Shown one piece after another: positions 20,094 through 20,575 of a stretch of DNA of 20,575 nucleotides (position 1 is the stretch's first letter; each line of letters begins with the position of its first letter). The notes under the pieces are model-generated. The model saw only the letters and a list, made by a program, of their open reading frames with translations, was not told the DNA's origin and did not search any database. Source of the DNA: an uncultured archaeon. Its GTDB lineage: Archaea; Asgardarchaeota; Thorarchaeia; Thorarchaeales; Thorarchaeaceae. Location: NCBI GenBank assembly GCA_964458565.1, contig CAYWJO010000045.1, positions 1 to 20,575 of the forward strand. The letters are read 5' to 3'. A program made the translations under genes and the position numbers.

Positions 20094-20575
20094 ATGTCAA
20101 GTAAAGATAAGGAGCACCTAAACCTAGTGGTAATCGGCCACGTCGACCACGGCAAAAGCACGATGACAGGCCGATTGCTCTATGAGACAGGTGCCGTAGA
20201 TGAACGTACGTTTCAAGCTCACAAGGCAGAGGCTGAAAAGCTGGGACGTCCATCCTGGATCGCGCAGAGATTTCCTCTCGCGAGGGGAAGCTTGGGCGTT
20301 CGCGCTAGACAGGCTCAAAGAGGAACGGGAAAGAGGCCTTACAATCGATATCGCCTTCTTCAAATTCTTGACTGACAAATACTACTACACAATTATCGAT
20401 GCCCCTGGTCATAAAGATTTCATTAGCGCTGCGTGATTTCCACTCAGCGGTGAAAAAAATATGATCACGGGAGCTTCGCAAGCTGATGTAGCATTACTTG
20501 TCGTGTCTGCAAAGAAAGGAGAGTTCGAGGCTGGTATTGGCCCCGGTGGTCAGACCAAGGAGCATGCATATCTTG
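20094..20575 (+). CDS. tuf: Elongation factor 1-alpha, 5' part, spliced: join(20094..20258,20290..20425,20456..>20575)
   Basis: [53 protein letters not shown]...GQTKEH. The frame is continuous only after removing two inserts. The gene runs off the end of the window. Confidence 0.93.
20259..20289 (+). other. EF-1alpha mRNA intron 1 (31 nt, BHB/BHL type)
   Basis: Inner hairpin TCGCG-C-AGAG-ATTTC-CTCT-CGCGA; central helix TCCT/GGGG; bulges GG|A and AA|G; 9-bp exon-exon helix 20244-20252/20293-20301. Removal corrects the +1 frameshift. Confidence 0.88.
20426..20455 (+). other. EF-1alpha mRNA intron 2 (30 nt, BHB type)
   Basis: Inner hairpin CGCTG-C-GTG-ATTTC-CAC-T-CAGCG; central helix TCAT/GTGA; bulges TA|G and AA|A. 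It contains an in-frame TGA, and removal restores DFIKNMITG. Confidence 0.9.

Follow-up and report, generated by a model that had tools for sequence, protein, structure and literature searches.

The DNA analyzed here (hereafter the window) is a stretch of 20,575 nucleotides, corresponding to C45:1-20575 in a genome bin of 93 contigs and 3.7 Mb with 5% contamination. A gene for the translation factor EF-1alpha starts at position 20094 on the plus strand, and the window ends inside this gene, at a 100-N scaffold gap; its nearest counterparts in public genomes are found in Thorarchaeota and Promethearchaeota MAGs. Past the gap, the gene shows no further interruption before its stop codon, and apart from the inserts described below it is undamaged over 434 codons. 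The assembly has no other EF-1alpha gene, the remaining matches being 30%-identical paralogues. We note that the same 55 bases stand on both sides of the gap (C45:20521-20730; L001:1928-2137), which marks the gap as an unmerged overlap rather than as missing sequence. Four other public assemblies from different samples (two Logan and two JGI) are 99.8-100% identical to the window over 20094-20575, both inserts included, and are contiguous across the site of the gap. Samples SRR9710542, SRR9700687, Ga0315534, and Ga0307445, which underlie contigs L139-L142, come from sites that harbor this population.

Two short inserts, at 20259-20289 and 20426-20455, interrupt the gene, and we refer to them as introns 1 and 2 in keeping with the interpretation developed below. 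Taking both out gives a 140-residue N-terminus that aligns without gaps (residues 1-140, 420 bases) and with ~95% identity to most intron-less Thorarchaeota orthologues in tblastn searches. In a DNA alignment of 16 relatives, the inserts are clean gaps in 13, and an intron 2 occupies the same site in the other three. The resulting features of the gene, with the evidence for each, are:

20094..20258, plus strand: EF-1alpha exon 1, codons 1-55 including the P-loop (translation; collinearity with intron-less orthologues)
20259..20289, plus strand: intron 1, 31 nt, frameshifting, with a relaxed BHB (gap in all 16 aligned orthologues; fold)
20290..20425, plus strand: EF-1alpha exon 2, closing with base 1 of the DFIKNMITG Lys codon
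20426..20455, plus strand: intron 2, predicted 30-nt BHB mini-intron (absent in 13/16 and present in 3/16 relatives; fold in eight distinct versions)
20434..20436, plus strand: in-frame TGA in the apical hairpin of intron 2 (invariant in 8/8 versions)
20456..20575, plus strand: start of EF-1alpha exon 3 (gene continues past the window and the 100-N gap, and is contiguous in the four other assemblies)

Intron 2 starts 332 nt into the EF-1alpha mRNA. The Ile codon ATT of DFIKNMITG occupies 20422-20424, A20425 opens the Lys codon, and exon 3 restarts at 20456 with AA AAT ATG; cuts after 20425 and 20455 restore DFIKNMITG, collinear with the intron-less orthologues. An earlier note on this DNA had described a 30-nt phase-1 insert with an in-frame TGA after the DAPGH motif, and all of its statements about the sequence checked out. 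We also agree with two consequences that it drew, namely that unspliced mRNA would give no full-length protein, translation being stopped at the TGA, and that EF-1alpha synthesis needs the removal of both inserts, given that the assembly holds no second EF-1alpha gene.

The genome encodes the enzymes that such removal would call for, with two PF01974 EndA paralogues (C1:27246-27500 and C5:17476-17736) and RtcB (C2:139736-141046), which matches the reported Asgard endonuclease of the two-subunit, broad-specificity type (PMC5829648; bioRxiv 10.64898/2026.10.13.758758). The tRNA-Asp and tRNA-Lys genes of the window (959-1092, minus strand, and 5162-5266, plus strand) are interrupted too, as had been claimed, by two inserts in tRNA-Asp and by one, at a non-canonical position, in tRNA-Lys, all similar in size to the EF-1alpha inserts. 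Rfam detects both of these tRNAs, and ARAGORN neither; they are the only features of the window to reach an Rfam gathering score, and the Rfam models find no group I or group II ribozyme core in the window, where the insert itself measures 30 nt.

Predicted Fold and Covariation of Intron 2

The minimum-energy fold of 20400-20472 has a free energy of -29 kcal/mol (z = -4.57), with none of 200 shuffled sequences folding as well, and contains the 5' bulge, the central and inner helices, and an exon-exon helix of 8 bp. Its elements, together with those of the strict motif where the two differ, are as follows:

20406..20413, plus strand: 5' strand of the exon-exon outer helix, Gly-His-Lys codons, paired with 20460-20467 (minimum-energy fold; codon choice)
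20420..20423, plus strand: 5' strand (exon bases) of the central 4-bp helix, paired with 20450-20453 (pair probabilities 0.87-0.93; 100% of cells paired in eight sequences)
20424..20426, plus strand: 5' three-base bulge, predicted cut after 20425 (no pairing in the minimum-energy fold; cut agrees with the junction expected from homology)
20427..20449, plus strand: intron hairpin (double-sided changes at two stem pairs, with three alternative Watson-Crick pairs at one)
20450..20453, plus strand: 3' strand (intron bases) of the central helix (fold; eight-version alignment)
20454..20456, plus strand: 3' bulge of the strict motif, predicted cut after 20455 (A-rich internal loop in the minimum-energy fold)
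20460..20467, plus strand: 3' strand of the exon-exon outer helix, Asn-Met-Ile codons (minimum-energy fold; eight-version alignment)

The hairpin consists of a stem (20427-20431/20445-20449), an apical stem (20433-20435/20441-20443), and a five-base loop (20436-20440), while the central helix is UCAU/GUGA with one G-U pair. The 5' bulge and the central and inner helices are predicted with pair probabilities of 0.87-1.0. The distal exon pairing 20407-20413/20460-20466, which the earlier note had proposed as possible, is indeed part of the minimum-energy fold, where it is extended to 8 bp. Its description of a clean 3-4-3 BHB, however, holds only in part. Such a motif can be drawn, and cuts after the second base of each bulge match the junction defined by homology, but this conformer is 6.6 kcal/mol less stable than the predicted optimum. 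The strict outer pairs beside the 3' bulge, an outer helix of 2 A-U pairs only, have a probability of about 0.02; in the optimum, U20418-U20419 pair instead with A20454-A20455. Considering this energy difference, the 3' cut site probably lies in the resulting 4x4 A-rich internal loop, that is, in a relaxed motif. As modeled, the BHB of intron 2 is thus real but relaxed on its 3' side, and 3' cleavage would depend on an enzyme tolerating this relaxation, which we count against the splicing interpretation below.

Comparison of eight distinct versions of intron 2 argues for the same structure, with 94.6% of pair cells holding standard pairs, as opposed to 33-58% after the 3' partners have been shifted by 1-3 columns, and with a covariation score reached by none of 500 shuffles. 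Two pairs of the inner helix are compensatory across these versions, with changes on both sides, whereas the same bases read as codons give non-conservative amino-acid changes between species. The combination of compensatory changes in the RNA with non-conserved "codons" indicates that selection acts on the RNA. In the exons, every intron-bearing allele makes the same synonymous choice for the Gly-His-Lys codons that supply the outer helix with its 5' strand, and this choice occurs in none of the intron-less alignment rows, including the sister of one of the carriers (G015). Such allele-specific codon choice argues for either a role of the exon helix or joint movement of intron and flank.

Distribution of Intron 2 and of Similar Inserts

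We searched 87 Thorarchaeia genomes with the intron-less EF-1alpha N-terminus and obtained an uninterrupted match in more than 55 of them. A 30-nt in-frame insert with one TGA was found in three genomes (G055, G025, and G015), exactly at the intron-2 site, such that intron 2 is carried by four species among the 87 genomes once the genome of the window (G000) is counted, and further versions are present in metagenome contigs. Intron 1 is unique to the species of the window within this set. When genomes with weak matches were rechecked for introns, the EF-1alpha gene was found to be missing from three assemblies (G028, G054, and G071), and one apparent additional case (G027, C24:48211-49498; L131, L136) was rejected, as its gene falls into three overlapping pieces in different frames, with frameshifts but no inserts, which reflects either sequencing errors or a decaying gene. 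Separately, the EF-1alpha N-terminus is absent from about 16 of the 87 Thorarchaeia bins, at completeness values of up to about 90%, and EF-1alpha seems to be a frequent break point in assembly, as it is in the window.

A maximum-likelihood gene tree of EF-1alpha, calculated with the intron columns removed, places intron 2 at three separated positions: the window and G055 are unresolved within a starred clade of 11 rows that includes eight intron-less rows, G015 is sister to the intron-less G019, and G025 is sister to an intron-less MAG. This tree needs at least three changes of state, be they gains or losses, and a tree that holds the carriers together is rejected (p-AU 5e-17, for a carrier group defined after the data had been seen). 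The introns of the window and of G055 are identical at 29 of 30 positions and the 60 nt upstream at 55, compared with 78% identity over the exons as a whole, which hints at transfer of the intron together with its flank, although constraint could also account for it.

We also searched with a covariance model for which intron 2 was the sole source. Within the window, its second-best match is intron 1, with exact boundaries and a score of 16.1 bits (E 0.031 in the window), which is not significant genome-wide, and up to E 10 the genome yields no further copy. Across the class, the model also matches two introns in stable RNAs. One, of 30 nt, lies in the 3' region of a Thorarchaeia 16S rRNA (G064; L128, about 22-51), upstream of the conserved CACACACCGCCCGTC; its apical hairpin of 11 bases is that of intron 2, and applying the bulge cut rule to this 16S intron gives the expected mature 16S sequence. 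The other, in a tRNA (L130, from G018), has a nearly identical apical hairpin. The hairpin thus recurs in introns of unrelated host RNAs, which is no more than suggestive of common descent. In the genome of the window, this five-base loop is no more frequent in hairpins than are its permuted forms, and one candidate, at C21:40013, was discarded, as it lies within an uninterrupted ORF. Among the remaining matches to the model are two at contig positions 1501-1537 with no convincing gene (L125, minus strand, from G079, 27 bits; L127, from G011, 24 bits), the first of which has a 5S rRNA about 1.1 kb downstream. A weak match of 11 bits (E 0.85) to the ends of the model, at 15091-15128 on the minus strand of the window in a ribosomal-protein/RNA-polymerase cluster, is probably due to chance.

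Different inserts with BHB motifs are found elsewhere in EF-1alpha. In G074 (L113:751-787, minus strand; G074:C6), a 30-nt phase-2 insert lies in a Tyr codon of DKYYYT; its central helix of 4 bp is perfect, its inner helix has 6 bp, and an in-frame TAA is created at the 5' junction. A 43-nt insert interrupts the P-loop Lys codon of GHVDHGKS in a 67%-identical EF-1alpha (L020, about 2152-2194); the MAG in question is labeled Thermoproteota, and its EF-1alpha groups with Jordarchaeales in the gene tree. In a 64%-identical lineage, a 35-nt BHB insert following DAPG separates the His codon from the Lys codon (L144/L145, about 945-980), and an insert partly seen on a truncated contig (L146: 1-45) stands immediately before DAPGH, in lineages of 64-67% identity. 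In the genome of the window itself, hairpin inserts of 30-31 nt are present in ahcY (C1, plus strand, about 187,510-187,541), in the C-terminus of actin (C1, minus strand), and in oppB (C4, about 91,011-91,041). The oppB interruption measures 31 nt, and contiguous OppB homologues are 92-96% identical; the length of the actin insert is a multiple of three, and it has an in-frame TAA and a loop resembling those of the EF-1alpha introns. We note that a homology-free scan of the genome for BHB motifs (4-bp central helix, 4-bp inner helix, reading frame restored) did not exceed a wrong-frame control for inserts of any length and did not separate the real cases (ahcY, actin, and oppB) from background; its noise is too high, since neighboring genes can look like the halves of a split one.

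These observations bear on the origin of intron 2, a question that is compatible with its being spliced. One possibility, which we consider tentative, is that it belongs to a family of mobile mini-introns that has spread between lineages and host RNAs through reverse splicing or recombination with intron-bearing DNA, the alternative being an ancestral intron that has often been lost. The three separated positions in the gene tree, each beside intron-less sisters, would be expected from mobility, as would the near-identity of intron and upstream flank in the window and G055, the flank common to all intron-bearing alleles, and the apical hairpin found again in the 16S rRNA intron, with similar ones in the tRNA intron and intron 1. 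However, one old gain followed by many precise losses fits the tree equally well, since counts of changes are blind to direction, and selection for the exon helix could account for the shared flank. The absence of another model copy in the genome at the E-value limit given above, the modest E value of intron 1, and the lack of enrichment of same-loop hairpins likewise speak against a mobile family. The broader proposition, that a mobile family of ~30-nt BHB mini-introns with a conserved apical hairpin has spread among the rRNA, tRNA, and most abundant mRNAs of Asgard archaea, appears unlikely to us at present. If it were true, essential Asgard translation genes would depend on enzymatic mRNA splicing, and splicing would have to outpace translation in a relative of the eukaryotic ancestor.

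Proposed Splicing of the EF-1alpha Pre-mRNA and Alternatives

Taken together, a 30-base, tRNA-intron-like hairpin in the sole EF-1alpha gene makes it very probable that the mRNA is cut and rejoined by the tRNA-splicing enzymes, and we put the probability that intron 2 is a BHB intron excised from the pre-mRNA of this single Thorarchaeota gene at roughly 85%, judging from sequence comparison and predicted structure. In the mechanism that we propose, exon bases 20420-20423 of the folded transcript would pair with intron bases 20450-20453, and this central helix would be flanked by the stable intron hairpin on one side and the exon-exon helix on the other. The two-subunit endonuclease EndA would then cleave after 20425 and after 20455, and RtcB would ligate the exons, restoring the Lys codon of DFIKNMITG, while on RNA that had escaped splicing, translation would end at the TGA. 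Both the cutting and joining and the way in which splicing competes with translation are inferred here. Archaeal ribosomes can follow the polymerase closely, and in a heavily used mRNA an intron beginning at 332 nt would have to be removed ahead of translation; we count this unexplained timing against the mechanism, alongside the relaxed 3' motif.

The earlier note had held that splicing would be contradicted if no spliced junction were found. This is formally the case in the collections searched, in that a degenerate pattern for the spliced EF-1alpha junction had no exact match in JGI metagenome contigs, and a full-length protein identical to the spliced product of this species was not found in the protein collection; however, these collections are mostly DNA assemblies, and the missing junction therefore says little. 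A 411-residue protein with 95% identity (P0003) has different downstream genes.

A further proposal of the earlier note, that the introns couple the supply of EF-1alpha to tRNA-maturation capacity, fared less well. As a regulatory checkpoint, it would mean that the introns are kept in order to tie EF-1alpha output to the capacity for tRNA splicing, and that the stop codon was selected so as to render unspliced RNA harmless. It is true that both introns make expression require EndA and RtcB, that the tRNAs of the window require the same enzymes, that the TGA is invariant in all eight versions, and that BHB inserts recur at several sites of EF-1alpha. Nevertheless, with intron 2 in only four species of the 87 genomes and intron 1 in only one, with intron-less alleles as the closest neighbors in the gene tree, and with at least three gains or losses and a single carrier clade rejected, sister species evidently manage without intron 2, making a conserved coupling to tRNA splicing unlikely. 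The stop codon carries little weight as well, since the TGA sits in the invariant apical hairpin, which is also present in the 16S rRNA intron, where there is no reading frame. As to the suggested check on whether introns with lengths that are multiples of three are enriched for in-frame stops, 13 of the 30 frames of ten such mini-introns hold a stop by chance, and hence the stops in three introns with such lengths (intron 2, the G074 insert, and the actin insert) are unremarkable. The bulges are, in addition, A-rich, which favors TAA. Recurrence in abundant RNAs, finally, would be equally expected from reverse splicing into abundant transcripts. We accordingly regard a checkpoint as improbable, and intron 2 as probably not a regulatory device; most likely, it is a tolerated and possibly mobile mini-intron of a ~30-nt class that is also represented in the tRNA and rRNA genes of this lineage.

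It is much harder still to reconcile the data with retention of the insert in the mRNA, either through stop-codon read-through, giving a 10-residue insertion, or through ribosomal bypass of the 30 nt. The insert length is a multiple of three, and in intron 2 a hairpin follows the stop codon, as it does at known bypass sites such as that of phage T4 gene 60. There are, however, no matching take-off and landing codons, with no second Ile codon before 20456, and an insertion produced by read-through would sit in the switch II region. The changes between species are, moreover, compensatory in the RNA and non-conservative in the protein, and the neighboring 31-nt intron 1 shifts the frame, which neither read-through nor bypass could manage. 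A pseudogene or an assembly artefact, to which the scaffold gap within EF-1alpha at the end of the window and the 5% contamination of the bin might point, is hardly credible for a sole EF-1alpha gene that is undamaged over 434 codons, is matched by four other assemblies from different samples, and has an insert conserved with covariation in other species.

Relation to Known Archaeal Introns

Assuming that intron 2 is spliced as proposed, its closest parallel is the cbf5 intron of Crenarchaeota (Watanabe 2002; Yokobori 2009, PMC2738675), the only BHB intron inside an archaeal coding sequence that is documented in the literature we searched, which does not cover all journals. Like intron 2, it is short, and it is patchily distributed among close relatives; its BHB is cut by a hetero-oligomeric endonuclease. 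The EF-1alpha case differs in its Asgard (Thorarchaeota) host, in the presence of two introns of 30-31 nt, in the relaxed 3' site, in its splicing being a prediction, and, for intron 2, in an apical hairpin shared with an rRNA intron. In the same, not exhaustive, body of literature, we found no mention of BHB introns in EF-1alpha or in Asgard mRNAs. A BHB intron confirmed both in vivo and in vitro is present in the HVO_1309 mRNA of Haloferax volcanii (PMC7714728), which would share with the EF-1alpha transcript the property of being an mRNA substrate of the splicing endonuclease (predicted for intron 2); this intron lies in the 5' UTR, outside of the coding sequence, unlike intron 2.

Among stable RNAs, the non-canonical tRNA introns of Asgard and TACK archaea, processed by an (alpha-beta)2 EndA with an L1 loop (PMC5829648; bioRxiv 10.64898/2026.10.13.758758), have the same motif and predicted cuts as intron 2, and the tRNA inserts of the window are of similar size, with the same enzymes encoded in the genome. 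The difference lies in the mRNA host, where codons make up the flanking helices and joining has to preserve the reading frame. The small hairpin BHB introns of archaeal 16S rRNA, about 30 nt long, also have the architecture of intron 2, and the Thorarchaeia example described above (L128) shares its apical hairpin, but their host is a stable RNA without a reading frame.

What would be new, therefore, is an essential, highly expressed Asgard translation factor that needs tRNA-type splicing twice within its first 360 bases, with such introns at several other EF-1alpha sites in related lineages. Keeping ribosomes off unspliced mRNA in a cell with no nucleus bears on why splicing and translation became separated in eukaryotes, and the case should be of interest for archaeal RNA processing and for eukaryogenesis alike. 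It has a practical side in addition, as the protein collection contains many EF-1alpha fragments of 93, 103, and about 331 residues, the products of gene callers splitting intron-bearing alleles, such that public databases hold these alleles in the form of fragments.
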